Assembly: GCA_964456985.1 (NCBI GenBank)
Contig: CAYWDH010000005.1
Coordinates: forward strand, 17,247-81,246
Direction of reading: 5' to 3'
From: an uncultured Eubacteriales bacterium
GTDB lineage: Bacteria; Acidobacteriota; Aminicenantia; Aminicenantales; Aminicenantaceae
Length of the DNA stretch: 64,000 bases
In this document: in pieces, positions 19,431 to 36,533 of the stretch
Layout: each line of letters starts with the position of its first letter
How positions within the stretch are numbered: the first letter of the stretch is position 1
Position numbers and translations under genes: made by a program
Notes under the pieces: model-generated
Databases searched by the model: none
What the model saw: only the letters and a program-made list of their open reading frames with translations
What the model was told of the DNA's origin: nothing

Positions 19431-19459
19431 TTGACAACCGCACTGTAATGACCTATTTT
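19431..19459 (+). promoter_or_regulatory. Sigma70-type promoter for the terminase module
   Basis: TTGACA-N17-TATTTT. Confidence 0.55.
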
Positions 19460-20326: not shown

Positions 20327-20327
20327 A

Positions 20328-21920
20328 ATGAACATTATTCAAGCTCTCGATGACGAAAGATTTTTCAAAGGTCTGTTCAAAGATTCTTCCACCTGGGCGT
20401 CATGGAGAGTTTTTCTCAAAGCATTATTCGGACTTCCAATTGAAGACAAAAAGGAACTTGAGCTTTTCAGGAAATGCACAGGAAGAAAAGAATTTTTATC
20501 TAAGCAAGCTAGAGAATGTTACGTAATAGCAGGGAGACGCTCAGGAAAGTCCTTCATTTCTGCGGTTATCGCTGTATATTTAGCCTGTTTTTTTGACTGG
20601 ACACCTTTTCTAACTACGGGGGAGCTGGGTTCTATTTTCATTATTGCAACGGATAAAGAACAGGCTCGTATTGTTAAGGCTTATATAGACGGGATTCTTA
20701 ACTCGACTCCACATCTTGCGAAAACAATAGAAAAAAGCCTTGTTTGGGAAATTGAATTGAACACAAGAGTAAACATTGCAATCAAAACCGCTTCATTCAA
20801 AACTGTCAGAGGATTCACATTGTTAGCTGTCATAGCTGAAGAACTTGCATTTTGGAGAGATTCAGAGACCTCTGCAAATCCAGCTCAAGAGATTCTAACC
20901 GCACTAAGACCCGCACTTTCAACTATTCCTAATTCTCTCCTTCTTGGAATTTCCACTCCATACAGCCGTTCGGGAGTTCTTTGGGAACATTTTCATAAAC
21001 ACTATGGAAACGACGAAAGAGAGGCTCCTCTAGTCTGGCAAGCTGACACTTTTACTATGAACCCTACAATAAACAAATCCATCATTGAAAACGCTCTCAG
21101 AGATGATTACTCAGCGGCTTCTGCTGAATGGCTTGCCAGATTTAGGGATGACCTTGAGCAGTTCTTATCATTAGAACTTATCGAGCAAGCAGTCATCCCT
21201 GGACGTATCGAACTTCCAAAGATTGCAGACACTCGGTATTTTGCTCATTGTGACCCAAGTGGAGGACGTGGAGACTCAATGACCCTGGCAATCAGTCACA
21301 AGGATTCAGACAGTCAGAAAATCGTCCTGGATGCTGTCAGGGAAGCCAGACCCCCTTTCGTACCCAGAGATGTGGTCAAAGACTTTTCCAAGGTTTTGAA
21401 AAGTTACGGAGTCGAGCGTTTACAGCTTGACCGTTACGCCGCAGAGTGGACTGTTTCAGCTTTTAGAGATGAAGGAATCATGCCAGAGTCGGTAAAGAAA
21501 TCAGCTTCTGAGCTTTATATAAATTTCTTGCCTTTGATAAGCAATCGAAGCATTGAACTCTTAGATAATAAACGACTCGTTTCACAATTTAAATCCCTGG
21601 AGCGAAAAACAAGGAGTGGAGGGCGAGATTTAGTTGACCACCCTCCAGGAGCACACGACGATTTGTCAAATGCTACTGCTGGGGCTTGTGTCCTTGCCTC
21701 TGAGATTCAAGAAAATGATTCAGAAATCATTCTCTCACTTCTAGAAGCAGAGGCGGAATCTATCTTGACAGATGAAGAGGAGCTTGAGCGGCGTTTTACA
21801 ACCTGGCTCTTAGGTGGTGAATTACCTCCGACAAAAGAGGAGCAAGAAGGTAAACCCAGGCAGGGAAAACCAAGGACAGTTTTGACAGTAAGTGAATGGG
21901 ACAGAAGAAATGATAAATAG
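20328..21920 (+). CDS. Terminase large subunit
   Basis: AGRRSGKS Walker A, AVIAEELAFW Walker B, LGISTP coupling motif, RNase-H-like nuclease DPSGGRGDS and HDDLSNA. Confidence 0.88.
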   Translation: MNIIQALDDERFFKGLFKDSSTWASWRVFLKALFGLPIEDKKELELFRKCTGRKEFLSKQARECYVIAGRRSGKSFISAVIAVYLACFFDWTPFLTTGELGSIFIIATDKEQARIVKAYIDGILNSTPHLAKTIEKSLVWEIELNTRVNIAIKTASFKTVRGFTLLAVIAEELAFWRDSETSANPAQEILTALRPALSTIPNSLLLGISTPYSRSGVLWEHFHKHYGNDEREAPLVWQADTFTMNPTINKSIIENALRDDYSAASAEWLARFRDDLEQFLSLELIEQAVIPGRIELPKIADTRYFAHCDPSGGRGDSMTLAISHKDSDSQKIVLDAVREARPPFVPRDVVKDFSKVLKSYGVERLQLDRYAAEWTVSAFRDEGIMPESVKKSASELYINFLPLISNRSIELLDNKRLVSQFKSLERKTRSGGRDLVDHPPGAHDDLSNATAGACVLASEIQENDSEIILSLLEAEAESILTDEEELERRFTTWLLGGELPPTKEEQEGKPRQGKPRTVLTVSEWDRRNDK

Positions 21921-22053
21921 AAGCTTATATCTAACGACGTCCACACCAAAAAGACTGTCCTTCTTTTTCAGGTGTTTTATGCCTATGGAGCAGGGCGGCT
22001 GTTTTTTAAAAAGAACAGTCGCCCTTCCTCCTAAGGTCAAAAGAGAGTGAAAA

Positions 22054-22656
22054 ATGACAAAGAAAGAAATTGAAAAAATCCTTATAAGCAAGATTCTGGA
22101 AAATCCTCATTTTATCCGCTTCGATAAAGCTCCGGCCGTTTACCCAGAACATAATGAACATGCAGGGTTACTCTGGAAGATTTTTTACCTTTTCGAGACC
22201 AGAACATGGACAAGACTCAGCAGGGAAAATGATGGTTTGATTTTGTCTGTTTTGGATAAAATCGCAAAGGAAGGGAAAGCTAAATTTTTCAGTGTGGAAC
22301 TCACAAAAGACATGCATCATGATGACATTCGCTTCAGGTGTGAAATCGGGACAGCGAAAAGGACAAACGGAACCTGTGATGTTAAACAAACAACTATAAG
22401 GCTCTATTCGGATGAACCTCTTACAAAAAAAGAGAAGAAAGAGCCTTACACTATTCTGAATGTTAAAGAGCAATTTGAGAAAATAAGAGAGGAACGAGAC
22501 AAGGCATTCAGAAAAGAGTTCGGATGGAGATACGACTTCGACCTCGAAAAGAAACTCCGCAACCAGGAGCTAAAAGCTCAATCTGAACTGAGACGAAACA
22601 TACGAGCAATCAGAAAATGGACTCAGGAACATGATGAAAAACAAAAAAAGGCTTAA
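22054..22656 (+). CDS. Hypothetical protein of the element core
   Basis: 200 aa ORF with a charged, coiled-coil-like C-terminus. Confidence 0.7.
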   Translation: MTKKEIEKILISKILENPHFIRFDKAPAVYPEHNEHAGLLWKIFYLFETRTWTRLSRENDGLILSVLDKIAKEGKAKFFSVELTKDMHHDDIRFRCEIGTAKRTNGTCDVKQTTIRLYSDEPLTKKEKKEPYTILNVKEQFEKIREERDKAFRKEFGWRYDFDLEKKLRNQELKAQSELRRNIRAIRKWTQEHDEKQKKA

Positions 22657-22749
22657 TATAAAATGGCTCATACTGGTTTTTCAAAGAATAAAGGGGCAGT
22701 CGTTTTTCTAACTTGTAACGACCGCCTCGACTAAAAGAGCAAAGGAAAG

Positions 22750-22884
22750 ATGAGTTATAAAAAGCTTTCAGTCCCAGAAATTAAGAGAGAAAATCCCTGG
22801 GGATATCTCAAAGATAGAATCAGGTTTTTTATTTGGCTTTTAAAGTGGAGTGTCATTCTTTTAATTTTAGGGGTTTGTTTTTAA
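22750..22884 (+). CDS. Possible 44 aa single-pass membrane peptide
   Basis: Own translation MSYKKLSVPEIKRENPWGYLKDRIRFFIWLLKWSVILLILGVCF; aaagga upstream. Confidence 0.4.
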   Translation: MSYKKLSVPEIKRENPWGYLKDRIRFFIWLLKWSVILLILGVCF

Positions 22885-22906
22885 TATGGAAAAAATCTTT
22901 AATCAT

Positions 22907-22949
22907 AGCCAAGAAGGGGAGGTCATTGCTTCTATCCTCCCCTCTGGCT
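22907..22949. terminator. Hairpin, probable terminator
   Basis: agccaagaaggggagg...cctcccctctggct inverted repeat. Confidence 0.5.
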
Positions 22950-23130
22950 CTTCAAAAAATTGGGTTTTTTTGAAAAATGATTAAAATAATAGATAAGGTC
23001 GCTCCGTCGTTTGGAGTGATGGTCATTTAGAACCCAGTTCTGGGTTGGTCATTAGGCTCGAAAAATCGAGCGGTTCCTTGAACTTGCGTTCAGCAAGTGG
23101 TGAATTAAAAAATTTAATAGAAAGGAGCCA

Positions 23131-23571
23131 ATGGCTATGATTAAAAATCCAAACTCAAACCCAAACCTGGGAAGAAGAAATCACCAAACAGCCGTTACTT
23201 TTGATGGTGTACATTACGGACAAACACCAATTGATTTGCTCGCAGACCCTAATATTAAACCACAGCTAAAAGTTTTATATTCAGCTTATCATTTACACTG
23301 TCCGCAAAAATATCTAAGTTCAAATCCGTTTACCTTCGTCAGTCAAAAAAGAATCGGCAGAGAATATCTTGGATGGAGTCAACAAACAGTTTCATATTGG
23401 ACAAAAAAACTTGCAGAGGAAGGCTGGCTGACAATCATAAGACTCGGACAAGGAAAATCCAACATCATCATTTTACACGATAGAAAAGGGAAGCGTATTA
23501 CAGCAAAAGAGCGGAAAAATTTCATCAAATCTGTCAAACTTCAACAGGCTAGATACCAATCCTCTTTGTAA
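23131..23571 (+). CDS. Winged-HTH protein, putative replication initiator / replisome organiser
   Basis: SQKRIGREYLGWSQQTVSYWTKKLAEEGWL HTH pattern; followed immediately by iteron-like repeats. Confidence 0.6.
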   Translation: MAMIKNPNSNPNLGRRNHQTAVTFDGVHYGQTPIDLLADPNIKPQLKVLYSAYHLHCPQKYLSSNPFTFVSQKRIGREYLGWSQQTVSYWTKKLAEEGWLTIIRLGQGKSNIIILHDRKGKRITAKERKNFIKSVKLQQARYQSSL

Positions 23572-24085
23572 CTAGATACCAACCCTCTTTGTGCTAAATA
23601 AATAAGAATAAATAAATAATAAATTTATTATTATCTTTTTTAAGATTTAAATAAATTTATTATTTATGAATAGAAGATATAATGTAATGTATATCTTCTA
23701 TTTACCCTGTGTAATACGCTCTCATACTGTAATACACACTGTAATACACACTGTATTACACACTGTATTACACTTTGTATTACATCCCTCGCTTCGCTCG
23801 GGGAACGCCTTCGGCGTCTCTGAATCTTAGAAAGTTTACTGAACAGACCCTTCAGCATTATTTCAACTTCAGCATTATTAGAAAATGTCCAGAATGTCCA
23901 GATATCAGGAATGTCCAAAATGTCCAGAATGTCCGAAAAAAGGGGACAAAAAGCAAATTGAGTTTACTCAAGAACGACCTTTAAATTAGTGTAATACAGA
24001 GAGTGTATGTAATACGTCCTTAATATAGCTGTAATACATTTCTACCTCAGGGTAATACACAATAATTTTATAGTGTAATACACAA
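23549..24085. repeat. Origin-like region with three families of short direct repeats and an AT-only tract
   Basis: 2x ctagataccaa(t/c)cctctttgt (23549, 23572); AT-only tract ~23596-23670; tandem 12-mers ctgta(a/t)tacaca ~23727-23775 plus scattered gtaatac; aatgtcc repeats ~23884-23934. Confidence 0.75.
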
Positions 24086-24130
24086 TTTCAATCAAAAATA
24101 GCCGTTTTTCATACTCTCACACTGGAGAGA

Positions 24131-25552
24131 TTGAAAATGGATTCTTTACTAAATACAAAACAGCTTTCAGAATACTTAGGAGTATCCAAAAGCACAGTAT
24201 ACAGATACATAAAAAATCTCGGTCTCCCTTACTATCAAATCCAAGATTCAAAACTCCTATTTAAAAAGGAAGAAGTTGATGAGTGGGTGAATCATCACAA
24301 AACAACGTACAAGCTTACTGACAAAATTTTAAATAATTTGTTGACAAATCCTGTTCGAGAAAATATTGATAAGGTTGAAGGAGGTCAAACAGTGGCGAGA
24401 AAAAAGACTCGTCACAATTACGGCTATGGTTCGGTTTATGTCAGGAAAACAAAAAAGGGAATATCAAGGTATTACATCGAGTATTACGATTCAGAAGGAA
24501 AAAGGATTCAGAAAGTAGTAAAAAATGCAGTTGATTGGAATCCTGCACATGAGGCTTTAAGAGATGCTGTCTACAAAGTACATTTCCATAAAATTGACTC
24601 AAAAATTCAAAAGAAAACTATCAGATTTAAATCATTCTCTGAAATCTATCTCAAAGACTATGCTATGAGAAAAAAATCATGGGAACGCTCGGAAAAAGTG
24701 TATTTGAACGCCAGCCTTATCCCCTACTTCGGAAAATATAAAATCAGAAAAATCACACAGCACCACATTGAGCAATTCATTCGTGAGAGACAAGAAAATG
24801 GAGTTAAAAAATCAAGTATCAATCGTGAACTTTCATGTTTGAGTATGATGTTCAAGAAAGCTATCAGTTGGGGATATTTGAGCGAGAATCCATTGGAACA
24901 TATCAAGCGATTTAAGGAGAAAGATAACATGAGGGAAAGAGTCCTGTCAGAAAAAGAAGAGTCAAGGCTTTTAGAAAATTGTGCAGACCATCTGAAGCCT
25001 ATCATCATCACCGCTCTTAACACCGGAATGAGGCTAGGAGAGATTCTACAGCTCAGATGGAGTCAAGTTGACTTTAACACAAGAAGAATCAAAGTAGAAA
25101 ACACAAAAAGCGAAAAGAACAGGGTCATTGGAATCAATGAAGACCTGTACAATGTTTTGAAGCAAAGAAACACTCAAAATCCTTATGTATTCCCGAATCC
25201 TAGCACAGGAAAAGCACTGACTACCGTAAAAACGTCATTCAAAACTGCTTGTAAGAGAGCGGGGATTGAAAATCTGCGTTTTAATGACCTAAGACACACA
25301 TTTGGAACTAGACTCATTCAGAATGGAGTAGACATTGAAACGGTGAGAGATTTAATGGGTCATCACAGCATCGTTGTCACTCAAAGGTACCTTCATACGA
25401 ACGATGAAAGAAGGCGGCTAGCTGTTGAATCATTGACCAATAAAGGGACAAAAAAGGTACAAATCTGTGACACGAACTGTGACACGGGGACAAAAAGCGG
25501 AACACCCAAAAATAACAAAACCCACCCAAATGTATTATTTTCAGCCAATTAA
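24131..25552 (+). CDS. Tyrosine integrase with an in-frame N-terminal excisionase-like HTH
   Basis: LLNTKQLSEYLGVSKSTVYRY (Xis/HTH_17 pattern); catalytic residues in TGMRLGE, FNDLRHTFG, MGH and TQRY; internal aaggaggt-N6-GTG start at 24392. Confidence 0.92.
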   Translation: MKMDSLLNTKQLSEYLGVSKSTVYRYIKNLGLPYYQIQDSKLLFKKEEVDEWVNHHKTTYKLTDKILNNLLTNPVRENIDKVEGGQTVARKKTRHNYGYGSVYVRKTKKGISRYYIEYYDSEGKRIQKVVKNAVDWNPAHEALRDAVYKVHFHKIDSKIQKKTIRFKSFSEIYLKDYAMRKKSWERSEKVYLNASLIPYFGKYKIRKITQHHIEQFIRERQENGVKKSSINRELSCLSMMFKKAISWGYLSENPLEHIKRFKEKDNMRERVLSEKEESRLLENCADHLKPIIITALNTGMRLGEILQLRWSQVDFNTRRIKVENTKSEKNRVIGINEDLYNVLKQRNTQNPYVFPNPSTGKALTTVKTSFKTACKRAGIENLRFNDLRHTFGTRLIQNGVDIETVRDLMGHHSIVVTQRYLHTNDERRRLAVESLTNKGTKKVQICDTNCDTGTKSGTPKNNKTHPNVLFSAN

Positions 25553-25558
25553 AAAAAG

Positions 25559-25611
25559 AGCCAGCGAGAGGATTCGAACCTCCGACCTACTGATTACGAA
25601 TCAGTTGCTCT
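25559..25611 (-). pseudogene. 3' 53 nt of tRNA-Thr(CGT), att junction; 5' half absent
   Basis: Reverse complement AGAGCAACTGATTCGTAATCAGTAGGTCGGAGGTTCGAATCCTCTCGCTGGCT gives anticodon arm (CGT), T-arm and acceptor 3' strand; no 5' acceptor strand adjacent. Confidence 0.9.
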
Positions 25612-25700
25612 TGCAGTGTTTTCCCTATGTTATATGGGTTAGCCAGAAAAAAAGTTTTAGCCAATTATAGCCGTAATTAGGCGTTTTTATTCAAAATCTG
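25583..25700. repeat. Direct repeat A, copy 2
   Basis: Matches 10967-11084. Confidence 0.9.
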
Positions 25701-25834
25701 CGTAAAATCTTAAGTAATCTAAGAGTTAAGTATCATATTTAAATTTGATTGATATCACAAAGTTATATATAATACCAAGGAAAGGAATATTCAATTAAAT
25801 ATAGAATATTTTAGATAATCTAAAAGATTTTCTT

Positions 25835-26974
25835 GTGGATAATTCATTACTAAAATCGTATGATTGGGACTTTGTAGATACCTCTTCAAGTAATGGAGTT
25901 CACTCAATCCACTCATACCCTGCTAAATTTATTCCTCAAATACCTCGTCAGTTAATTAAATTATTTGCAAATGACAAGAGTAGAGTAATTCTTGATCCAT
26001 TTTGTGGCTCAGGAACTACGCTTGTTGAAGCAATTCTAAAGGGATTTGATGCATGGGGAATTGATATAAATCCAGTTTCTTGTCTTATTTCAAGGGTTAA
26101 AACTAGGCGTCTTCCAAATAATTTTCTATTTGTTTTGAGACAAGTGCTTGAAGAGGCAAAAGAGCATTATGCAAACAATACAGTCATACTTCCTGAAATC
26201 CCTCGATTAGACCATTGGTTTAAGAAAGATATTCAAAAAGCTGTTAAAGCTCTTTTAGATAAAATCAACTTGCAGGAGAGCATCCTAATAAAAGAAGGCC
26301 TACAGGTTGCTCTCTCGAAAATTTTGGTACAGGTTTCTAATCAGGAAAGTGATACGCGATATGCTGCTGTCGAAAAAAACGTAACCTATCTAGATGTTTT
26401 TGTTAAATTTGAGAAGGCCGCAGTGATTGTCTTCAATGAATTATCCAAAATATCAGATGACCTCTTTAAAAAGCTTGGCAAAGCCGTGGTGATAAATAAA
26501 GATATTATGAAGACCAAAGGCAAAGATTTGCCTGATAATATCGGTTTAATCATTACTTCACCCCCATATCCGAATGCATATGAGTACTGGCTTTATCATA
26601 AATATAGAATGTATTGGTTAGGAATGGACCCAATAAAAGTGAGAGAGAATGAAATAGGCGCTCGACCTCATTATTTTAAGAAAAATCATCAAGATGAAAG
26701 GGACTTTGAGAATCAGATGAGTAAATGTTTCGAACTTCTGTCACGAGTAATGATAAAGAATGGAAAGGCATGTTTTCTCGTAGGAGATTCTGTTATACAT
26801 GGGAAAACGATTGATAACTCTTTAATATTACATCGAGCGGCAGAGCCATATGGATTTAAAGTAATCGATGAAGTCGAACGCAATATCTTAGTCACACGAA
26901 AGACATTTAATCCAAAACATGGAAGATTAAAAAAAGAAACAATCTTGGTGTTTTCTCTTAATGAAAAGATATGA
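25835..26974 (+). CDS. DNA methyltransferase 1 (probable N4-cytosine)
   Basis: HSYPAKFIP, DPFCGSGTT and TSPPY motifs. Confidence 0.88.
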   Translation: MDNSLLKSYDWDFVDTSSSNGVHSIHSYPAKFIPQIPRQLIKLFANDKSRVILDPFCGSGTTLVEAILKGFDAWGIDINPVSCLISRVKTRRLPNNFLFVLRQVLEEAKEHYANNTVILPEIPRLDHWFKKDIQKAVKALLDKINLQESILIKEGLQVALSKILVQVSNQESDTRYAAVEKNVTYLDVFVKFEKAAVIVFNELSKISDDLFKKLGKAVVINKDIMKTKGKDLPDNIGLIITSPPYPNAYEYWLYHKYRMYWLGMDPIKVRENEIGARPHYFKKNHQDERDFENQMSKCFELLSRVMIKNGKACFLVGDSVIHGKTIDNSLILHRAAEPYGFKVIDEVERNILVTRKTFNPKHGRLKKETILVFSLNEKI

Positions 26975-28575
26975 AAGTAAAATTTCACTGGCACAATTAT
27001 AAATATTTCCCATATGAAAAAGACTTAGCTAGACGAGAATTGTTATCCTTAACAAAAACTAAGCCAAAACTAACAAAAGAGAATATAGCTGTAGAAGCTC
27101 CAAATAGCTGGAAAGATATTGCATTCAGAACTACCTATTTTCGGGAAGCGATAGCAGAAGATGGGACTATAATAATACCCCAACAAGCTCATTTTGAACT
27201 TACAGCAAATGGGGTATCTGAATCAGGGGACTTTGGTGGTTCATTATCCCTTAACCATCAGTCAACCAGATATTCTGCACATGGAATTCACGAATTCCGT
27301 GGAAAGTACAATCCACAGATAGTACGAGCAATAGGCAACATAGTTGGCATTAAACCTGGGGATTGGATTATTGACCCTTTTTGCGGGAGTGGGACGACGT
27401 TGTTAGAATCAGCCCATACTGGTTGGAACGCTGTCGGGATTGAATTGAATCCTCTTGGTGTAGAGATTACAAACGCTAAAATTGCCTCTATAAAAGTGCC
27501 TGAAGACATGTTAATTGCTGAAACTACAAAGTTAAAAGAGAATTTGAAAAAAAAATGGAATTCTTATTCTTTCGAAAAAGCATTTTTAAAAAAACAAATT
27601 GATTCATTACAAAAAACAAGTCTAGATAATATATTTCTCAATTGGAATTATCTTAAAAAGTGGTTTTCTGGGTCAGTACTAATACAAGTTGCATCTATAG
27701 TCGAAGAAATAAAGAAGCTTTCTCTTCCAGACATACAAAATATATACAAAATATTCTTGAGTGATATTTTGCGTCATGTTTCTTTTCAGGATCCTGGAGA
27801 TTTAAGAATAAGGCGAAGGAAACATCCTGCTCCCAATTATCCTGTAATACCATTATTTGTTGAATCCATTTCATCAAAAATAAAAAATATCATATTAGCC
27901 AGAAAATTCATTTCAGATGATAAAACTTATCAAAAAGCGATTCTTGAAGATACCCGATATATTTCAGAGAGAATCAATGAACATAAAATGCCTAAGGATA
28001 GTGAAATTTTTGATGCTGCTATTACAAGCCCTCCTTACGCTACTGCACTCCCATATATTGATACTTCTAGATTGAGCCTTACTCTGCTCAACTTTATAAC
28101 ATCAGATATTATTCATAAGACAGAAAAAAAATTGATTGGAAGTAGAGAAATTACCGAAAAAGAGAGGCAAAGTTATTATGAATCCATTGTCACTAATCGA
28201 AATAAACTTCCTAAAGAATGCATTAATTTGTGTAGAAGGCTAAGAAATGCAGTTAATTTTGAAACAGACGGATTTAGAAGAAAAAACGTTCCTGCTTTAC
28301 TTTATAAATATTTTGTAGATATGCAATTGACATTTAAACAGATGTCCAATCTCCTTCGTCTTCATGCGCCTTATGCAATTGTTATAGGAATGAATAGGAC
28401 AACACTTGGTGGTAAAGAATTTATTATTAATACCCCTCTGTTGTTGACTCGCCTGGCTGAAGAAAGCGGATTTTCATTAGAGAAAAAAATTAGATTGAAT
28501 ACATATCAGCGTTTTGACATTCATAAATTGAATTCAATTAGGGATGAAATATTGCTAATTTTAAGGAAAACATAG
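26971..28575 (+). CDS. DNA methyltransferase 2 (probable N4-cytosine) with N-terminal extension
   Basis: HEFRGKYNP, DPFCGSGTT and TSPPY motifs; ATGA overlap with MTase 1. Confidence 0.88.
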   Translation: MKVKFHWHNYKYFPYEKDLARRELLSLTKTKPKLTKENIAVEAPNSWKDIAFRTTYFREAIAEDGTIIIPQQAHFELTANGVSESGDFGGSLSLNHQSTRYSAHGIHEFRGKYNPQIVRAIGNIVGIKPGDWIIDPFCGSGTTLLESAHTGWNAVGIELNPLGVEITNAKIASIKVPEDMLIAETTKLKENLKKKWNSYSFEKAFLKKQIDSLQKTSLDNIFLNWNYLKKWFSGSVLIQVASIVEEIKKLSLPDIQNIYKIFLSDILRHVSFQDPGDLRIRRRKHPAPNYPVIPLFVESISSKIKNIILARKFISDDKTYQKAILEDTRYISERINEHKMPKDSEIFDAAITSPPYATALPYIDTSRLSLTLLNFITSDIIHKTEKKLIGSREITEKERQSYYESIVTNRNKLPKECINLCRRLRNAVNFETDGFRRKNVPALLYKYFVDMQLTFKQMSNLLRLHAPYAIVIGMNRTTLGGKEFIINTPLLLTRLAEESGFSLEKKIRLNTYQRFDIHKLNSIRDEILLILRKT

Positions 28576-28576
28576 A

Positions 28577-29785
28577 ATGATTATAGAAATAATACCTCAA
28601 ATGGAGACAGGAAACATACAGCGTCTTCGGGTTGGAGATTTCCTAAATCAAACCATCAGTAACAATGACTTTCTTAGCTTTAAATTTATTGTTGCGTATA
28701 TGAGATTCTCTGGTTGGGATAGACTCGGTGCTTCCATAGAGAATCTTTTGGATCGAGAAGGTCTGATTTCAGGGGTAGTCGGAATTGATTCAGGGATTAC
28801 AAGCCAGGAAGCTCTTAAAGCCTTAATGAGTGTTTCTAGCTCAAGTACGGTTTTTTATAGTACTTCGAACTTCATTTTTCATCCTAAGGTATACGCCATA
28901 AGTGGGAAGGAAAAGTCTATAATTCTAGTAGGAAGTGCAAACTTCACTCGAGATGGACTATTTAGAAACTTTGAGATAATGACTGCTATTCATTTGGATT
29001 TTAATGATAGTATTGATTTAGAAGTACACAATAGGTACGAGGTAATACTAGATGAATTATTAGATATCCATAATGCCAATGTGCAACCTCTAAATAGAGA
29101 GACATTAAGGCTTTTGGTCGAAAATAATTTAGTGAAACCTGAATCGGAAGGAATAGAGCCTGGAGAGAAAGGCTTACAACGAGGAAGACAAGGAGAGCTG
29201 CCCAACTCTCAAATAGGGGCTATGTTTCCCCCGCTTGGTATCCCTGTTGCTCCTCCCGGATATCGTAGTAGTGTTAGACCCACAAGGCAACCTCCTGGTC
29301 AAAGAAGGAAAGTGATAGTAGTCCCTCCACAGGTCTCAGGAGAAGCTCGAACATTTATAATGAAGCTATCTGAATTTGATTCTAGTCATCGAAGCGGGAT
29401 TTCTGGAACAGCAGAGGTACTCATCCCTCATAGAGCCATCCAATTTTTTCCAGAATTGTCACATACTACAAGAAAATATCCAGACGCAGTGTTTGATGTT
29501 GTTTTACGTACTCCCAGCGGACCTGAAAGGCGCAGATTTAGACTTTGGTATTATGAATTTAGGGCCACAGGGTCAAAAATAGATGAATATCGTTTGCGCA
29601 TGGATAAAGAGACAATTGATATAAGTTCGCCTGGTGGAGGAGACTTGTTAGTGATTAATAAGTTACCTGAGGGAAGCGATCCAGAATTTGAAGTTACAAT
29701 ATTGCCTCAAACTGACCCAACATATCCAGCGTTCTTTGAACTTTGTACGCAAGAATCTCAAGGAAAGAGATGGGGCATTGCTTAA
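28577..29785 (+). CDS. Phospholipase-D-family restriction endonuclease (BfiI/NgoFVII-like)
   Basis: FHPKVY...VGSANFT HxK nuclease motif, Pro/Gln-rich linker, separate C-terminal domain; coupled to two MTases. Confidence 0.8.
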   Translation: MIIEIIPQMETGNIQRLRVGDFLNQTISNNDFLSFKFIVAYMRFSGWDRLGASIENLLDREGLISGVVGIDSGITSQEALKALMSVSSSSTVFYSTSNFIFHPKVYAISGKEKSIILVGSANFTRDGLFRNFEIMTAIHLDFNDSIDLEVHNRYEVILDELLDIHNANVQPLNRETLRLLVENNLVKPESEGIEPGEKGLQRGRQGELPNSQIGAMFPPLGIPVAPPGYRSSVRPTRQPPGQRRKVIVVPPQVSGEARTFIMKLSEFDSSHRSGISGTAEVLIPHRAIQFFPELSHTTRKYPDAVFDVVLRTPSGPERRRFRLWYYEFRATGSKIDEYRLRMDKETIDISSPGGGDLLVINKLPEGSDPEFEVTILPQTDPTYPAFFELCTQESQGKRWGIA

Positions 29786-30118
29786 AAGATAATATTGGGC
29801 TTCCTTAATATGGGGTTTAATTAGATATAAGCTTTTTTCAATACAAGCAAACTATTCTGAAATATTCTATACAGTCTATTTGGGCGATTGGAAGCCAGAA
29901 ACTCTGAAGCTATTGCTTCCCGAATGCAGATTCCGGTCCATTCCGGACACTGATTCCGAATTAATCCGGCCACTAAATCCGGAGCATTCCGGTCACGGAT
30001 TCCGGATTAATCCGGCCATTTTTTACTGGGTTTCGGAATCATTGATCAGCGAAGCGGCGCTGGATAACTTGATGAGAATAAGCCATCATGTCTCTTTTAA
30101 AAAAGAGAGGAGAACAAG

Positions 30119-31651
30119 ATGGCCAAAAAGAGGTTATCCATGCGAAAAATCAGAGAAGTACTCAGGTTAAAACATTCGGGGCTTTCGATTCGGGCGATTG
30201 CCCGGGCCTGTTCGATAGGGAGAGAGACGGTCCGGGAGTATTTAAACCGGGCTTCAGAGGCAGGGCTTAGCTGGCCTCTTCCTGATGAGCTTTCCGATAA
30301 GGATCTGGAACAGCAGCTTTTTCCTGCGGTTATAAAGATCTATGGACAGAGGAGCAGTCCTGACTGGGTTTTGATCCATCAGGAACTGAAGAAAAAAGGG
30401 GTGACCCGCCGGCTGCTGTGGGAAGAGTACCGGCAAGAAGAAAAAGATTATTACCGTTACTCCCAGTTTTGCGAGCTCTACCGGCGATGGGCAAAAAGCT
30501 TGTCTCCTCCCATGCGGCTTCCTCACAAGGCTGGGGAGAAGCTGTTTGTTGACTATGCCGGCCTGACAATGTGTTACACGGATCGCTCCACTGGGGAGGA
30601 AAAGAAGGCGTATATTTTTGTAGCCATGTGGGGAGCCAGCAATTACACCTATGCTGAAGCCCATGCTGGCCAGACCCTCACTTCCTGGATCAGCGGCCAT
30701 ATTCGGGCGTTTGAATATTTTGGAGGGGTTCCGGTCCTTTTAGTACCGGATAACACCAAGACCGGGGTGACATCAGCCTGTTACTATGAGCCGGATCTCA
30801 ATCCCACTTATCAGGAATTTGCGCAGCATTACGGAACCGCAGTGCTTCCCACAAGGGTCAACCGGCCTAAAGACAAAGCCAAAGTGGAAAAAGGTGTACA
30901 GACGGTCGAATACTGGTTGATTGCTCCCCTGAGAAAGAGACAGTTTTTCAGTATCGCTGAGATCAACGATGCTCTCAAAGATAGACTCGAGGAGCTTAAT
31001 ACCCGGGAGATGCAGCATTTAAAAAAGAGCCGCAGAGAGATGTTCGAGGAGTTGGATCGACCCGTGCTCCGGCCTCTGCCTCGAACCGCTTTTGAGGTGG
31101 CGGAATGGAAAAGAGCCAAAGTGAATATTGATTATCATGTGGAATTTAAAAAGCATTACTACTCAGTGCCCTACAAGTTGATTAAAAAATATGTGGATAT
31201 CCGGGCCACAGACCAGGTGATCGAAGTTTTTTACAACCGGGAGCGGATCTCTTCGCACAAACGAGATGACACCCCGGGTCGGCATTCCACTCATCCTGAG
31301 CATATGCCGGAATCTCATCGGCAATATGCGGAGTATCATCCTGAGAGGTTCATCAAATGGGCCAAACGTATCGGAGATCTTACAGAGCAGCTGGTAAATA
31401 CCATCTTCTCATCCCGGCCTCATCCTGAACACGGGTACCGTACCTGCCTGGGGCTTATGCGCCTTGAGTCACGTTATGGCAAAGAGCGGCTGGAGGCCGC
31501 TTCGAAGCGGGCTCTTTTTTTTGGGCTTTATTCCTTTCGAGGGGTTAAAAATATCCTGGAGGCTGGATTGGATAAACTATCATTGGAGGAATCAACCGGT
31601 GTGGGCAGTAAAGCACACGCCAATGTCCGGGGAACAGATTACTACTCCTGA
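30119..31651 (+). CDS. istA: IS21 transposase IstA
   Basis: N-terminal HTH, FVDYAG, VPDNTKTGV and KDKAKVEKGV DDE motifs. Confidence 0.95.
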   Translation: MAKKRLSMRKIREVLRLKHSGLSIRAIARACSIGRETVREYLNRASEAGLSWPLPDELSDKDLEQQLFPAVIKIYGQRSSPDWVLIHQELKKKGVTRRLLWEEYRQEEKDYYRYSQFCELYRRWAKSLSPPMRLPHKAGEKLFVDYAGLTMCYTDRSTGEEKKAYIFVAMWGASNYTYAEAHAGQTLTSWISGHIRAFEYFGGVPVLLVPDNTKTGVTSACYYEPDLNPTYQEFAQHYGTAVLPTRVNRPKDKAKVEKGVQTVEYWLIAPLRKRQFFSIAEINDALKDRLEELNTREMQHLKKSRREMFEELDRPVLRPLPRTAFEVAEWKRAKVNIDYHVEFKKHYYSVPYKLIKKYVDIRATDQVIEVFYNRERISSHKRDDTPGRHSTHPEHMPESHRQYAEYHPERFIKWAKRIGDLTEQLVNTIFSSRPHPEHGYRTCLGLMRLESRYGKERLEAASKRALFFGLYSFRGVKNILEAGLDKLSLEESTGVGSKAHANVRGTDYYS

Positions 31652-31749
31652 AGGGTAAAAGTTTTACATCATTTAAAGAAAACGCGTTATACGGCATCTG
31701 AGAGCCTGTTTTTTTTAAGCTTTAAAAACACAGAAAAAAGGAGATAATC

Positions 31750-32508
31750 ATGCTTCATCAACCCATTATGGATAAACTATTCGCGCTTAAACTCAATGGA
31801 ATGCTGGAAGGACTGCGGGAACAGATGGAAAGCCCGCAGTACAGGAAACTGAGTTTTGATGAGCGTTTCGGTCTTCTTCTGGACCGAGAATGGGACCTTC
31901 GGCAGAAGAGAAAACTGCACAGGAGAATGCGAGTGGCCCGGTTTAGAGAACAGGCTGCTATAGAGGATCTTGAAATATCCGCTAAAAGAGGGCTGGATCG
32001 CAAACAAGTTCTATACATGGCAGAGTGCAACTGGATCAGAGAAAAGCTCAACACACTCATAACCGGTCCTACAGGAGCCGGGAAGACCTATCTGGCCTGT
32101 GCTCTTGGAAATGCCGCCTGTCGAAATGGACTGACGGTCCGTTATTTTCAGCTCTCCCGGCTGCTTGAGATATTAAAACTGGCTCGTGCAGATGGATCCT
32201 ATCCCAAAATGTTAGACCAGATCGCTAAATGCCAGCTGCTTATCCTGGATGACTGGCTGCGGAATCGTCTCACAGAAACACAAACCAATGATATCCTCGA
32301 GATCTTCGAGGACAGATATAATCATGGCTCCATCATGGTGGCTACTCAGATCCCAGTGGAAGAATGGCATGAACAGTTTGCCAATCCCACTTTTGCCGAT
32401 GCCATCATGGACAGAATCGTTCACAATGCCTATAGACTGGAATTAAAGGGTGAATCTATGCGAAAACGAAAATCTAACTTGACCCATTCCGGTCACTCGG
32501 AGGTATAA
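31750..32508 (+). CDS. istB: IS21 helper ATPase IstB
   Basis: GPTGAGKT Walker A, LLILDDW Walker B, ADAIMDRIVHNA. Confidence 0.95.
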   Translation: MLHQPIMDKLFALKLNGMLEGLREQMESPQYRKLSFDERFGLLLDREWDLRQKRKLHRRMRVARFREQAAIEDLEISAKRGLDRKQVLYMAECNWIREKLNTLITGPTGAGKTYLACALGNAACRNGLTVRYFQLSRLLEILKLARADGSYPKMLDQIAKCQLLILDDWLRNRLTETQTNDILEIFEDRYNHGSIMVATQIPVEEWHEQFANPTFADAIMDRIVHNAYRLELKGESMRKRKSNLTHSGHSEV

Positions 32509-32809
32509 TGATAGACCAGCGTCGCTTCGCTCCGGAATGTGGCCGGATTAAATCGGAATCGGTGGCCGGATACGCCGGAATAAGCACCGAAGAAGAAATG
32601 ACGGCAATGTCGGAAATGCATCCCACTTAGATAGGCGGTTTATAAATAGAGATATTCTCATCTCAGGAAAAGAAATAACTATAAATAACTAAATTTCATT
32701 TAAATTGTGATGCCCTCTTTATCTTGACAGCTAATTAAACTAAGAATACATTTATAGTAAGAAAATAAGAGCAAAAAGGTCAAACTTAATAAATATATAC
32801 TAAAAAAAA

Positions 32810-34105
32810 ATGAATGAATATCATAAAAAGAAAAACCAAGATATTAAGGATATTCCCTCACTTAGGAAATTAAAAGACAATGTAAATGGAATGCATATGC
32901 TTTCAAAAACCATAATATTTCTTAAAAAACTTGGAATAAGAGACACAAAACTTTTAAATGCTTTGAATAAATTTCCCGAATTAGAAAAGAAAACAAAGGA
33001 GATTATTGAAATGCCAGACCGTTTCAATAATCATTTTTCAAAAAATGGTTGGATTGCATATGAATCCATGAATTTTGAACTAATGAAAGAAACAGTGAAT
33101 CTAGCTGATAAGGGAAAACTTGAAGAAGCAGAAGCTATATTGGTTGAGCAATTTGATGAGCCTAATCTCGATTTTCATCTTATGAAAATGAAGGCTATTC
33201 AAGAATATCAAATAAGGGAAGACCTTATAAAAAAGGCAATGACAGATTATTTATTCAAACGTTATCATGCCTGCATTCCAGTTATCCTTAGCCTGATTGA
33301 TGGAATAGTCAATGATATTGAACAAAAAGGCTTTTTTGCCCAAGGAGTTAATTTGACTGCTTGGGATTCTATTGCTGCACATAACTCAGGAATACAAGAA
33401 CTCAAAAAAATACTAAATAAAAAACGCAAGAAAACTACTACTGATACAATTACAGTTCCTTATAGGCATGGAATACTCCATGGTCGTGATTTAGGATATG
33501 ATAATAAGATTGTTGCTTCGAAAACATGGGCAGCTCTTTTTGCTATTCGTGACTGGGCTCTTGCAGTGAGAAACAAAGGTGAGAACAAGAAGAATGAAGA
33601 AGAGGCGAGAAGCATTCTTGATTCATTGAAAATAATAGCTGAAACAAAATCTTTAAATAGACAAATTAAAACATGGAAACCGAGGAACATTGAGATAGGT
33701 AGAGATTGTCCTCGATCTGGAAATTCAAAAGATTATGAAGAGGGAAGTCCCGAGAGAGCCATGGTAGAATTCATGCAATATTGGAATAATTTTAACTATG
33801 GTTGGATGGCTAAGATGATAAAGACATTTCGCGATGAACCAATTAAAAAATTTGCAGGAGACATCCGTGAATTATTCCAAGCTCATAACTTGAAAAGTTT
33901 CTCATTAATAAGGATATCTGATTTTGCACCCGCAGCTGCTGAGATTGAAGTTGAGTTAAGTATAATGACGGATGAAAAAGAAATAAAAAAAAGTTCCAAC
34001 GTCAGATTAATTCACGAAAATAAACAAGGAAATCCTCAAGTAATGGGTGCTAATAATGGCATTTGGAAAATTCCTATTTATTCAATATATTCACTTGTAA
34101 GTTAG
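32810..34105 (+). CDS. Hypothetical protein with HEPN-like Rx4H motif
   Basis: LIDGIVND followed by YRHGILHG; TTGACA-N17-TACATT promoter at 32724-32752. Confidence 0.6.
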   Translation: MNEYHKKKNQDIKDIPSLRKLKDNVNGMHMLSKTIIFLKKLGIRDTKLLNALNKFPELEKKTKEIIEMPDRFNNHFSKNGWIAYESMNFELMKETVNLADKGKLEEAEAILVEQFDEPNLDFHLMKMKAIQEYQIREDLIKKAMTDYLFKRYHACIPVILSLIDGIVNDIEQKGFFAQGVNLTAWDSIAAHNSGIQELKKILNKKRKKTTTDTITVPYRHGILHGRDLGYDNKIVASKTWAALFAIRDWALAVRNKGENKKNEEEARSILDSLKIIAETKSLNRQIKTWKPRNIEIGRDCPRSGNSKDYEEGSPERAMVEFMQYWNNFNYGWMAKMIKTFRDEPIKKFAGDIRELFQAHNLKSFSLIRISDFAPAAAEIEVELSIMTDEKEIKKSSNVRLIHENKQGNPQVMGANNGIWKIPIYSIYSLVS

Positions 34106-34133
34106 AATCAAAAATTAGTGTCTTTTTTAGAAA

Positions 34134-35729
34134 ATGACAAGAAAAAAGCCAAAGGTTCCATACACTCCTATCAGTAAACATAAGTTAAAGAAAGGACTAT
34201 TAAAGCCGCCCTTAAGTCAACTTAACATTAAACAAATAGACTGGCATAGAGATTTGTTACCTGAGCATCTTTGGATTGAATGCCTATCAATTACATATGT
34301 CCAAAAAGAGTGGCAAAATTTATATAGTGAATTTCTTGATGCTTTAGATGCATACGTTCCTGAAGATAAAATTATTTTTGGTTTTATAACAGATTTTGGA
34401 TTAATCCCGTCTGATAAGAGAAAAGATTTCTTGAAATATAATGAAAAATTAGTATATAGAGCATTTTACAAGCCAATAGGAAGGATCATTACGTTCTATC
34501 CAGAAGCTCCATGTTATTGGCTTTTACAGAAAAAATATTTGGATATTGAAAGACCAGTTAATTCTAATGTTGAGTTAGGAAAGTTGAGTAAATCGGTCTT
34601 GAGACTTATTCCAGGTAAAGATAAGCATGCAGGACATATAAGAGCAATGCCCATTTCTAGAGCAATTAAGCATAAAAAAATATATTTCAAGAGGGGAATG
34701 AAAATCGCCGACCTTCTCCCTAAATACCCATCTGGATGTGACGAAGAAGAAAAATATCATGTTCAGTCGCAAGCTAGAAACATAATGAATACCTTTTTTC
34801 TACAAAAAGATATATATTTGAATAGAAAATGGCCAAAATATTTTTGGAATAAAAATTTGGAGTTAGTACCATGTTCTCCTCATAAAATTCAAGCAAATAA
34901 AGAGAATGCGTTTGGTGAAGATGAAACCAATAAACTTTACAAACTTATTGATAGAAACTCCAATATTGTAAAAGATTACCTAAAGAAAATTTCTTTTAAT
35001 TATAAGTATGATTTGTACAATACAGAGCGTGACGAGGTTCTTCTTGGGCTTTTTGGCAGACTTACTCGTATTTATGTTCTAATTTTATCTAATCCACCTC
35101 TTTGGTCAAGGGATATTGCGGGGATTTTGCTACGATGCCTAGCAGAGACTGCGATTACATTTGCATATCTAACTAAAAAAGGTTCCAAGGATGAACTGAG
35201 AGATTTTAAGGCATATGGAGAAGGGAAAGAAAAGCTTCTGATGTTACACCTTCAAGATACTTATCCAGATAAAAAATCATTAGAAGGAAAGAATTCTGAA
35301 GAAATTGCTGAGGAAATGGGATGGGGTTTTTCGCCAGAATTAATGGATATTGAATTGTCAGATTGGACAAAAAAATCCACAAGAGAGTTAGCATTTTCTG
35401 TAGGTCTTGAAGATATTTATAGACTGGTTTTTGACCCTTCAAGCTCAGATGTTCATGGCACTTGGATTAGCCTAAAAAAGTCTAACCTAACACGATGTGT
35501 TCAGCCTTTACATAGGTTTCATCAAATGCCTCAATATATCGAACCACCAATATTTGTAAATACGATAGATGCAGTTCAACGAGTTTATCAAAAGTGCGTA
35601 GAAATAGGTAATCGACACTTAGACTTTCCTAAAATGAAGCATAAACCTGAAAAAGTTGTCTCATTCCTAAATACAGTTAAAAAAAGATACATAGATTTCG
35701 ATAAGAGCAAAAAGAACAAAGGCACTTAG
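34134..35729 (+). CDS. DUF5677-like (HEPN-superfamily-like) domain protein
   Basis: C-terminal ILLRCLAETAITFAYL ... SSDVHG pattern. Confidence 0.6.
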   Translation: MTRKKPKVPYTPISKHKLKKGLLKPPLSQLNIKQIDWHRDLLPEHLWIECLSITYVQKEWQNLYSEFLDALDAYVPEDKIIFGFITDFGLIPSDKRKDFLKYNEKLVYRAFYKPIGRIITFYPEAPCYWLLQKKYLDIERPVNSNVELGKLSKSVLRLIPGKDKHAGHIRAMPISRAIKHKKIYFKRGMKIADLLPKYPSGCDEEEKYHVQSQARNIMNTFFLQKDIYLNRKWPKYFWNKNLELVPCSPHKIQANKENAFGEDETNKLYKLIDRNSNIVKDYLKKISFNYKYDLYNTERDEVLLGLFGRLTRIYVLILSNPPLWSRDIAGILLRCLAETAITFAYLTKKGSKDELRDFKAYGEGKEKLLMLHLQDTYPDKKSLEGKNSEEIAEEMGWGFSPELMDIELSDWTKKSTRELAFSVGLEDIYRLVFDPSSSDVHGTWISLKKSNLTRCVQPLHRFHQMPQYIEPPIFVNTIDAVQRVYQKCVEIGNRHLDFPKMKHKPEKVVSFLNTVKKRYIDFDKSKKNKGT

Positions 35730-35966
35730 AAAATGATGTTTATTTTCACAAACGGATACTCCACCTGCATCTTTCTATAATGTTAGAAACCGATAAGACG
35801 GATTATGTCAACTTTTTATCGACTAAACTCCTTTATTTGCAACAACTCTTGATTTTTCTAAAAAAAGGGACGATTTTTGTGAATTTTGCCCCAAAATGGC
35901 CAAAAAAACGGCCATATTTTCCCAACCAAGTCCAAAAACATCTCTATTTTTTGCCTTTTTATCCCA
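35710..35966. repeat. Direct repeat B, copy 2
   Basis: Colinear similarity to 19131-19388; homology stops at tccca (35966). Confidence 0.88.
35786..35813 (+). other. XerC/XerD dif-like recombination site
   Basis: GAAACCGATAA-GACGGA-TTATGTCAACT; 11-6-11 layout with a XerD arm close to canonical dif arms. Confidence 0.8.
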
Positions 35967-36533
35967 ATAAACAATGCTTATCTGGCGCAAAATCCTCTGC
36001 TTGAGTTCTCTTCTTGATATCTTTTCTGCAATGTCTGCCGCTTCTTGAAAAGCGTGTAAAGACCCATCCAATTTTTTGCTCTCCCTCAGTTCTATTCCGA
36101 GCATATAAAGGCTTATGACCTCCAGTACTTTTTTTAATTCATCCTGTTTGTCTGTTAGATGGCTCATTTCAGATCGATCCAATAAATGCGAATACTCCTT
36201 ATAGGAATCCGATATCCTACCTAAATTCCAGTAGCACAGCCCTTTATAAAACCCGCATTCGATATATTTTTCTTCTTTGTTTTTATACTGAGCTATTATT
36301 GAAGCTGTCTGAAAAGCTTTTAGCGCTTTATCGTAAATGCCATTTTTATAGAATTTTTCAGCCTTTAAAAATACAAGATCGAACCAATTATACTGTGTGA
36401 TGTTCTGGTAATGTGGAGTGAAAAAAATAATAGACCGAGAGAGCAATAGAGAGCCTATTGAAGAAAATAAAAGCAGAAATAAGCATGTCCTTTTCAAATA
36501 TCCCATCTGTAAATAATATTGAATGTGAATCAT
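35967..36533 (-). pseudogene. 5' fragment of a TPR(-CHAT) gene paralogous to 7904-10906, truncated by repeat B
   Basis: Signal peptide and TPR helices align with the N-terminus of the intact protein; after RQISIVYWD the frame reads into repeat B and stops at 35823. Confidence 0.72.

Follow-up and report, generated by a model that had tools for sequence, protein, structure and literature searches.

Xer sites on mobile DNA

Sites for the host Xer recombinases are known from mobile DNA of several kinds: plasmids, in which they serve multimer resolution or occur in pdif modules, and the integrase-less IMEXs. The importance of the central region of such sites is familiar from other recombinases, as heterospecific lox sites of Cre and FRT sites of Flp, with identical arms and unlike spacers, do not recombine with each other. 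In the pdif/xrs modules of Acinetobacter the central region likewise decides which sites are compatible (PMC11705084; PMC6449649). Xer excision requires direct repeats with an identical central region, and no recombination was seen between sites with unlike central regions (PMC11705084).

The window, that is, the whole stretch of 64,000 nucleotides analysed here, contains two dif-like sites. The second of these, at 35786-35813 (copy 2), is predicted to be a Xer-type recombination site, a look-alike of the host dif that is carried by a mobile element. The coordinates of all features are given in Table 1.

Table 1. Features of the mobile-element array and its borders in the window
Feature	Position	Strand	Remarks
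Left junction of the insert	10848-10911	.	congener homology stops at 10868; integrase-like 3' gene tail at 10852-10911
att1, left end of element 1	10912-11000	-	decayed copy of the tRNA-Thr 3' fragment; keeps a 25-bp identical stretch, CGACCTACTGATTACGAATCAGTTG
LC1 and cargo 1	11001-19129	+	LC1 11001-11084; type III R-M mod/res 11174-15759; DUF6610 pair 16463-17862; other ORFs to 19129
RC1, conserved non-coding block around copy 1	19131-19388	+	between cargo 1 and the TerS-like gene; aligned to RC2
dif-like site copy 1, of element 1	19207-19234	+	GTTACCGATAA-AAATAA-TTATGTCTACT; XerD arm 10/11, XerC arm 7/11
Core of element 1	19717-25552	+	Pfam, PHROGs; family synteny TerS-TerL-...-Int-tRNA
TerS-like ORF, element 1	19717-20181	+	Pfam, PHROGs
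Small ORF, element 1 core	20162-20326	+	
TerL, element 1	20328-21920	+	Pfam, PHROGs
ORF, element 1 core	22054-22656	+	
Replication-initiator-like wHTH, element 1	23131-23571	+	Pfam, PHROGs
Tyrosine integrase with N-terminal HTH_17, element 1	24131-25552	+	Pfam, PHROGs
attP-like site	25547-25611	-	65 bp: 3' 54 nt of tRNA-Thr(CGT) and the 11 nt that follow; overlap with the stop codon of the integrase
LC2 and cargo 2	25612-35729	+	LC2 25612-25700; spans LC2 through the DUF5677 protein
Two DNA methylases, cargo 2	25835-28575	+	
PLD-family nuclease, cargo 2	28577-29785	+	
IS21 istA/istB, cargo 2	30119-32508	+	
Unknown ORF, cargo 2	32810-34105	+	
DUF5677 protein, cargo 2	34134-35729	+	
RC2, conserved non-coding block around copy 2	35710-35966	+	homologous to RC1 19131-19388; T[AG]TCCC[AG] motif TerS-proximal, as in the family
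dif-like (Xer-type) site copy 2	35786-35813	+	XerC-like arm GAAACCGATAA 35786-35796, central GACGGA 35797-35802, XerD-like arm TTATGTCAACT 35803-35813
CHAT2 paralogue N-terminal remnant (TPR part)	35823-36533	-	reading frame runs into RC2; Pfam TPR
Right junction of the 25-kb insert	35954-35966	.	13-bp microhomology CCTTTTTATCCCA, common to the RC1/RC2 end and the congeners' CHAT2 gene

Two dif-like sites and the host dif

Copy 2 is 28 bases long and lies inside a non-coding block of 257 bp. It has the layout of Xer sites of the dif/xrs type, with two 11-bp arms around a 6-bp spacer and the inner ATAA/TTAT present. In comparison with the dif of the genus, the XerD arm is identical (11/11) and the XerC arm is weak (6/11). 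Because the XerD arm is fully identical and the pattern ATAA-N6-TTATGTNAANT has its sole match in the whole 3.03-Mb assembly at 35786, the resemblance to dif exceeds chance, and the site that the first-pass annotation had proposed at this position can be upheld. Its description as the more canonical of the two copies is correct for the XerD arm (10/11 in copy 1) but not for the XerC arm, in which copy 1 is the closer to GTGTCGCATAA (7/11).

Copy 1 lies 16,579 bp upstream. As the annotation had it, the two sites have one orientation and unlike hexamers, AAATAA and GACGGA; both lie on the + strand, and only 2/6 bases of the hexamers are identical. The surrounding blocks RC1 and RC2 are 80-85% identical overall: 76.6% in the left flank, 19/22 in the arms, 2/6 in the spacer and 83.8% in the right flank. 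The two copies are homologous and therefore cannot count as independent occurrences. No DNA homologue of the RC block was found in 60 related genomes or in the family loci outside the window; what it has in common with the family is the 28-bp site and short TCCCA motifs only. Promoter and terminator scans gave no excess over shuffled sequence in either block. The junction from cargo 1 through RC1 to core 1 is confirmed by an independent per-run contig, 100% identical to 18359-22402. Exact-match look-ups of the proteins encoded by cargo 2, of the CHAT2 remnant and of TerS did not place RC2 in any other context; independent confirmation exists for the RC1 junction only.

The chromosomal dif of the genus is GTGTCGCATAA-GGTATA-TTATGTCAACT, with minor variants, in all eight of the congeners. 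It occurs once per genome in a conserved context, with the left flank conserved across the eight, and can be written more fully as GTGTCGCATAA-GGTATA-TTATGT[C/A/T]AACT. The congener spacers are GGTATA or, alternatively, GGGTTA and GGGATA; the host dif spacer is also given as GATATA. Complete Aminicenantes chromosomes have similar, single dif sites. A palindrome elsewhere in the assembly, TTTTGACATAA-TCCACC-TTATGGCAAAA on C76, was weighed as a candidate for the true dif of this MAG but given up, the genus dif being clearly different. Two Xer-type recombinases of the host, at C17:11150-12010 (382 bits) and C4:18154-19017 (332 bits), score above the TIGR02225 (XerD) cut-off.

A tandem array away from its tRNA

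The tandem elements that had been proposed are indeed found, as one whole element and the remnant of a second with homologous site blocks. Judged from sequence, 25 kb of the window (about 10869-35953) are a fragment of an array in which capsid-less, integrase-bearing elements that integrate at tRNA-Thr are arranged in tandem. Their plan consists, in order, of att, a short conserved LC block, a variable defence cargo, an RC block with one dif-like site, TerS-TerL, a Rep-like gene and Int. Element 1 is whole and has the make-up of a capsid-less, satellite-like TerS/TerL/Int element: a TerS-like gene, TerL, a tyrosine integrase and a tRNA att, with no capsid, portal or tail genes. Element 2 has att, LC, cargo and RC only, without a core, and it ends 141 bp (boundary 35954) to 154 bp (end of the shared 13-mer, 35967) past copy 2, which is its last surviving part and marks its stump.

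The 65 bp of the attP-like site are identical to C31:15907-15971. The tRNA-Thr(CGT) on that contig has ordinary neighbours, and attB is therefore empty. A related integrase (59% identical) is found in another locus (L004) at tRNA-Thr(CGT)-SMC. Scans of the window for tRNAs and Rfam families gave no match; its att sites are tRNA fragments only. At the position of the CHAT2 remnant, the congeners have a CHAT2 gene of 920-980 aa, in the order CHAT1-CHAT2-peptidase and without any dif-like site. The two CHAT genes are convergent, and the 25-kb insert stands in place of 3.7 kb between them, each of its junctions showing microhomology. The array sits at an illegitimate site, away from its tRNA, while the true tRNA-Thr target is empty. 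At the left junction, a weak alignment suggests that 10852-10911 may be the tail of an integrase from a third, lost element.

It had been predicted that a crossing between 19207 and 35786 would excise about 16.6 kb with core 1 and cargo 2. This geometry holds: the segment between the sites contains core 1 with its integrase, an intact 65-bp attP and cargo 2, and it would make a complete, potentially mobile hybrid element if released.

Sites and spacers across the family

The same gene order recurs at 18 loci from genomes and 80 from metagenomes. Around 20 of 44 related TerS/TerL/Int loci have a strong dif-like site in the 3.6 kb that precede TerL; in the control, the 3.6 kb downstream, the figure is 1 of 37 (Fisher p = 6e-6). 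The survey used the arm consensus of one host clade, with which a site is recognisable in about half of the family only and which also inflates the apparent arm conservation. Where both ends of an element are defined (L048), the site lies within it, with the cargo on one side and the core on the other. It is an internal feature, one per element across a large family, and not an element end.

The survey of spacer diversity among sister elements, which the first-pass annotation had recommended, gives 30 different spacers among 31 sites, and none equals the host dif spacer. In 25 of the 31, as in the host dif, the last spacer base, which adjoins the XerD arm, is an A. The XerC arms of the window are the poorest of the set, deviating at positions 3-4 from the G and T that are found in 29 and 27 of the 31 sites, respectively; both window copies may be weak or decaying. 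The sites occur in either orientation (21 +, 10 -), with the T[AG]TCCC[AG] cluster always on the TerS side. In four related pairs, homology extends past the site for 50-76 bp on the XerC side, on which cer and psi have their accessory sequences; an accessory motif common to the whole family was not found.

Arrays of related elements also occur in L037, L110, L117 and L149. The spacers are unlike in the window and in L110, and identical in L149; insulation of tandem neighbours, suggested in the first-pass annotation, is a possible purpose of the spacer differences. In L149, a TerS/TerL unit without integrase and without tRNA is flanked by a pair of identical dif-like sites, which are separated by 10,849 bp and are not a wrap-around overlap. 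Nearly all members of the family retain their own integrase, and in complete chromosomes the elements adjoin tRNAs about 140-150 kb from dif. There are no circular contigs of the family among the 98 loci, and TerL alone had no match among viral contigs. An apparent second dif in one genome, taken up as a candidate IMEX, was rejected, as it is a 99-bp overlap of two contig ends.

Possible roles of the site

It seems about as probable as not that the site serves multimer resolution in the manner of cer and psi, with the spacer confining recombination to identical sites. The integrase would excise the element and Rep would drive its replication, giving rise to circular multimers. The host XerC/XerD would then act at the site and convert these to monomers, as at plasmid cer/psi. 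Because strand exchange needs matching central regions, a hexamer private to its element would confine recombination to the sister copies of that element and would exclude both the host dif (GGTATA) and neighbouring elements as partners. The episomal, multimer-prone stage is an assumption, as no circular contig was found among the 98 loci; the core does have a Rep-initiator-like wHTH gene. Going by the literature, the unlike spacers of the window pair would block Xer recombination (PMC11705084), and the hybrid excision is not expected to take place. Against multimer resolution, TerL packaging uses concatemers, so that resolution is not obviously useful during packaging. The identical sites around the integrase-less unit of L149 fit integration or tandem joining instead. 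Furthermore, no accessory region appears to be conserved family-wide, and the site is recognised in about half of the members.

It could be imagined instead, with a rather low probability, that the site is used for cargo exchange as in Acinetobacter pdif modules: the cargo lies between the integrase att and the XerCD site, and Xer crossing between the sites of two tandem or co-resident elements would move it to another core, yielding in the window a circle of 16.6 kb composed of core 1, attP and cargo 2. The geometry is exact, as att/LC and RC delimit the cargo and the interval between the sites comprises a complete core together with an intact attP and cargo 2. Arrays of elements are common, DNA homology in L039, L154 and L162 begins at most 2 bp from the outer edge of the site, on the core side only, and Xer-driven plasmid cointegration between matching sites is documented (PMC11705084). 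However, the window spacers have only two bases in common, and compatible partners would be rare because 30 of 31 family spacers are unique. In addition, the cargo breakpoint is not at the crossover point, since in the window pair, L048/L160 and L119/L134 the homology reaches beyond the site and covers 50-76 bp on the cargo side; the conserved LC and RC blocks could allow ordinary homologous exchange.

A broader proposal, unlikely in our estimation, is that the hexamer acts as a natural compatibility code in a cargo cassette served by two recombinases. Elements with the same hexamer would swap cargo or fuse by Xer recombination, for instance through release of the 16.6-kb circle, and those with unlike hexamers would be insulated even in tandem.

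Comparably improbable is a role without recombination, in which the site would bind XerD/XerC in regulation, topology or partition, or copy 2 would be the inert relic of a dead element. Element 2 has no core and is unable to replicate or package alone, no XerC arms in the family are weaker than those of the window copies, and the site is always beside the T[AG]TCCC[AG] cluster upstream of TerS, likely a cis-acting control or packaging region. On the other hand, the two arms, the 6-bp spacer and the inner ATAA/TTAT, which Xer sites need for cleavage, are kept across elements with non-alignable flanks. Between the window copies, the arms are identical at 19 of 22 positions, against 77-84% in the flanks.

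There is still less to be said for a second, IMEX-like integration route, in which the site would be an attP for host XerCD into the chromosomal dif or another element's site if the tRNA is unavailable. The L149 unit, the perfect XerD arm, the A next to it in 25 of 31 spacers and the position of the window array away from its tRNA would suit this view. No family member, however, is seen at the chromosomal dif, those in complete chromosomes lying by their tRNAs; the family spacers are unlike the host GGTATA/GATATA; and nearly all members keep an integrase. IMEXs lie at dif with dif/attP hybrid flanks and have no integrase, whereas the window element encodes a tyrosine integrase and carries a tRNA attP, and the insert junctions, which lie about 8.3 kb to the left of site 1 and 141-154 bp to the right of site 2, are microhomologies and not Xer-site hybrids.

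That copy 2 is simply the single chromosomal dif at the replication terminus, an objection raised in the first-pass annotation and checked against the congeners, is very improbable and was rejected: although the assembly has no other strict dif-pattern match and the local GC skew changes a few kb away, this change tracks gene orientation and foreign DNA, the congeners' dif sits elsewhere with another spacer and a conserved flank that is missing from the window, their 3-kb dif loci match nothing in the 86%-complete MAG, their counterpart locus is without such a site, copy 2 lies inside the 25-kb insert that they lack, and a homologous copy is present 16.6 kb away, at 19207. Copy 2 is thus not a single site in a conserved terminus context common to relatives.

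Comparison with known systems

Multimer resolution, the role favoured here, is modelled on ColE1 cer and pSC101 psi. As in these, a dif-like core occurs once per mobile replicon, here predicted to serve the host XerC/XerD; of the two arms, that of XerD is well preserved and that of XerC less so, the central region is unlike dif, and conserved sequence adjoins the XerC arm (50-76 bp in the window family). In contrast to cer/psi, the carrier is not a plasmid but an integrase-bearing, tRNA-integrating TerS/TerL element of an uncultured Aminicenantes bacterium. There is no recognisable accessory region of about 180 bp and there are no PepA, ArgR or ArcA sites in the window family, and resolution is inferred.

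With the Acinetobacter pdif/xrs modules, the family has in common that Xer sites are borne by many elements, next to adaptive cargo, and combine conserved arms with diverse central regions (PMC11705084; PMC6449649). A pdif module, however, is bracketed by two Xer sites, often inverted (PMC11705084; PMC6449649), whereas cargo 2 has a Xer site on one side and the integrase att with LC on the other. The IMEXs (CTXphi, VGJphi and TLCphi of Vibrio cholerae, and the gonococcal genetic island) are comparable in their dif mimic, tandem arrays and proposed dependence on host Xer. They are without integrase and at the chromosomal dif, unlike the present family with its integrase, tRNA sites and spacers that mismatch the host dif, and unlike the window array at its illegitimate site.

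Here, a perfect copy of the host XerD arm is found once inside each member of a large integrase-bearing family. The carriers have a terminase without capsid and live in uncultured sediment bacteria, and nearly every central hexamer is different. If the sites are active, two recombination systems would be used side by side: the chromosome would be served by the element's own integrase, and the elements themselves by host Xer. The logic proposed for the private hexamers is that of heterospecific lox and FRT sites. The latter are engineered variants of one recombinase system, whereas the hexamer diversity described here is natural and its effect is proposed; with active sites, it would provide a ready test set for central-region gating of Xer recombination.

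Two dif-like sites in a tandem element pair

The window contains two tandem, capsid-less TerS/TerL/Int elements that run from att to Int; in the second, the core (the TerS-to-Int genes) is missing. The non-coding blocks RC1 and RC2, which hold the two dif-like sites, align at 80-85% identity and have no further copies in the genome. Identity is 76.6% to the left of the site and 83.8% to the right; the arms agree at 19 of 22 positions and the spacers at 2 of 6. The first-pass annotation had reported a second dif-like site with the orientation of the first and another central hexamer, and both sequences are indeed read on the plus strand, 16,579 bp apart, with GACGGA and AAATAA as spacers. In a pattern search of the whole 3.03-Mb assembly, the sole match to ATAA-N6-TTATGTNAANT is at 35786. 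The bare core ATAA-N6-TTATG occurs 94 times, and it is therefore the extended arm that sets site 2 apart. Two Xer-type recombinases in the host genome score above the XerD model cut-off. Three 23-bp-spaced repeats (29932-30018) precede the IS21 element of cargo 2.

Features of the tandem pair and its right border, with their order in the array where it applies
Order	Feature	Position	Strand	Content
1	att1, then LC1 (short conserved block)
2	Cargo 1			Type III R-M, DUF6610 pair, further ORFs
3	RC1, with site 1	19131-19388		Non-coding, ~257 bp, around site 1
	Site 1, dif-like	19207-19234	+	GTTACCGATAA-AAATAA-TTATGTCTACT
4	Core 1			TerS-like ORF, TerL, Rep-initiator-like wHTH, integrase
5	att2, then LC2
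6	Cargo 2			Two methylases, PLD nuclease, IS21, unknown ORF, DUF5677 protein
	IS21-family element	29880-32508		istA 30119-31651, istB 31750-32508; in cargo 2, between PLD nuclease and downstream genes
7	RC2, with site 2	35710-35966		Non-coding, ~257 bp, around site 2
	Site 2, dif-like	35786-35813	+	GAAACCGATAA-GACGGA-TTATGTCAACT
	T[AG]TCCC[AG] region	19370-19388 and 35954-35966
	CHAT2 stump	35823-36533	-	236-aa TPR ORF

The chromosomal dif of the genus

In the eight other species of the genus, a pattern search finds one dif site per genome, GTGTCGCATAA-GGTATA-TTATGT[C/A/T]AACT, with GGGTTA and GGGATA as alternative spacers and a conserved 30-bp left flank, tatcagtgatttatctttatgggaaatatt, before every copy. 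The form GTGTCGCATAA-GGTATA-TTATGTCAACT is legible directly from loci L050-L058, and complete Aminicenantes chromosomes, reached via other loci, have a single comparable site each, with the spacer GATATA or GAGTTA. Compared with the genus dif, site 2 agrees at 11/11 positions of the XerD arm and 6/11 of the XerC arm, and site 1 at 10/11 and 7/11. Nothing in the window's MAG (86% complete) corresponds to the 3-kb dif loci of four congeners, and its true dif is therefore missing from the assembly. The possibility, raised in the first-pass annotation, that site 2 is simply the single chromosomal dif is refuted, since the dif of the eight congeners differs in spacer and conserved flank and its locus is absent from the MAG.

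An apparent second dif in one congener (G006) was rejected, the duplicate being a 99-bp overlap between two contig ends. Two contigs of this genome end at or near dif: one starts about 18 bp ahead of the site, whereas C36 runs on for about 60 bp beyond it.

Attachment sites and insertion of the array

There is a second pair of homologous blocks (10954-11084 and 25570-25700), and both start with part of a tRNA-Thr(CGT) on the minus strand, namely its 3' half. No intact tRNA was found in the 64-kb window; the genome's only intact tRNA-Thr(CGT) lies on contig C31 (15907-15990) and has ordinary neighbours, a gene for a 973-aa protein and SMC. Its last 54 nt and 11 nt downstream recur at 25547-25611 (65/65 identical), a stretch that overlaps the integrase stop codon and is thereby marked as an attP-like site. 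An integrase that is 59% identical, on a metagenome contig, is located exactly at tRNA-Thr(CGT)-SMC. The att1 copy (about 10912-11000) has decayed, retaining 25 identical bases. Element 1 may still excise (att1 x att2) and reach its proper tRNA target. The attB on C31 is unoccupied, and the array lies at an unrelated, illegitimate site.

The ancestral form of that site, seen in eight congeners (for example at G005:C161:859-4575), has two convergent CHAT-TPR paralogues, in the order CHAT1(+), 1.4 kb, CHAT2(-), S58 peptidase(+). Congener homology ends at 10868 and starts again at 35954, so that 25 kb stands in for 3.7 kb. The replaced DNA takes in the C-terminal two thirds of CHAT2, and the window's genome has thus lost most of this second paralogue to the insert. 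The left junction (region 10848-10911) falls within the last codons of CHAT1, the final 12 or so of which are unlike every congener. Past them come 40-60 bp with a weak similarity to the 3' end of the integrase gene, which would fit a third element formerly located ahead of att1. At the right junction there is a 13-bp microhomology, CCTTTTTATCCCA, common to the ends of RC1 and RC2 and to the congeners' CHAT2. We infer that illegitimate recombination brought in one piece of a longer array. The RC1 context is confirmed by an independent per-run contig, 100% identical to 18359-22402; an independent contig spanning the RC2 junction was looked for and not found.

The site in the element family

TerL homologues are numerous, and the survey set comprised 18 loci from genomes, most of them Candidatus Aminicenantes MAGs, and 80 from metagenomes, with the common gene order TerS-like, TerL, ..., Int, tRNA. 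A strong dif-like site lies within 3.6 kb upstream of TerL in about 20 of the 44 loci with enough sequence, as against 1 of 37 in the 3.6 kb downstream (Fisher p = 6e-6). The site is a hallmark of this family. In L048, where a 53-bp tRNA-Ala repeat defines the two ends, it lies between cargo and TerS; in L043 (TerL 67% identical) the intergenic DNA is unalignable and the site is present, inverted. The 31 family sites (21 plus, 10 minus) have 30 different spacers, in which the last base, A in 25 of 31, is the sole position with real bias. Because the sites were found by their arms, this set overstates how well the arms are conserved; neither the diversity of the spacers nor the contrast between upstream and downstream is affected.

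Some loci are also arrayed. L037 holds three additional tRNA-Thr fragments, L117 has a dif-like site (7414) together with a further TerS-like gene, 6 kb downstream of a TerL, and L110 (JABUBL010000111.1) has two direct sites, at 2866 and 9020, 6.15 kb apart, with TGTACA vs TGATTA as spacers.

A short motif, T[AG]TCCC[AG] (e.g. TTTTATCCCA), is concentrated on that side of the site which faces TerS, with 47 matches vs 7 on the other side. Within 300 bp of the site in the family loci, it is present on these sides at 23/29 and 5/29 sites, respectively. The bias is independent of site orientation, and the motif is frequently found in direct or inverted pairs; the microhomology at the right junction of the insert is one such motif. 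The motif may be a binding site for pac/TerS or a regulator.

Possible roles of the dif-like site

In Acinetobacter experiments, Xer excision works on direct repeats sharing one central region, and no recombination took place between sites whose central regions differed (PMC11705084). By this rule, and with a spacer identity of 2/6, 19207 x 35786 is predicted to be silent, in agreement with the earlier view that unlike spacers may insulate the tandem elements. That interpretation is partly supported; insulation of neighbours may be a by-product of the spacer differences rather than their purpose.

By analogy with cer/psi, we infer that the dif-like site most likely serves in multimer resolution. 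An element would be excised as a replicating circle, multimers would arise and be resolved at the site, and a private hexamer would confine recombination to copies of the same site. The finding of one private hexamer per element fits a site that recombines only with its own copies.

Several points count against multimer resolution. No circular contigs were found among the family loci, and terminase packaging favours concatemers. L149 (JABUBK010000336.1) has two identical sites, GTGTCTCATAA-GGATTA-TTATGTCAACT, at 57-84 and 10906-10933, 10,849 bp apart, around a TerS/TerL unit without integrase or tRNA fragment; their left flanks are identical and their right flanks diverged. Such an arrangement is easier to reconcile with integration or joining than with resolution, and L149 could be an IMEX-like relative that depends on Xer, or else a tandem whose units were joined at the sites. 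An IMEX-like second integration route is one rival reading. Another is a pdif-like site for cargo exchange. The XerC arms of both window sites are weak, again a point against resolution, and the site could also be one for binding only, or a relic.

Multimer resolution finds some slight support in related element pairs, which keep 50-76 bp of homology beyond the XerC arm, on the side that in cer/psi holds the accessory sequences. Element-borne Xer sites are known as such; what is new is that they occur, with heterospecific spacers, in satellite-like elements that have an integrase.
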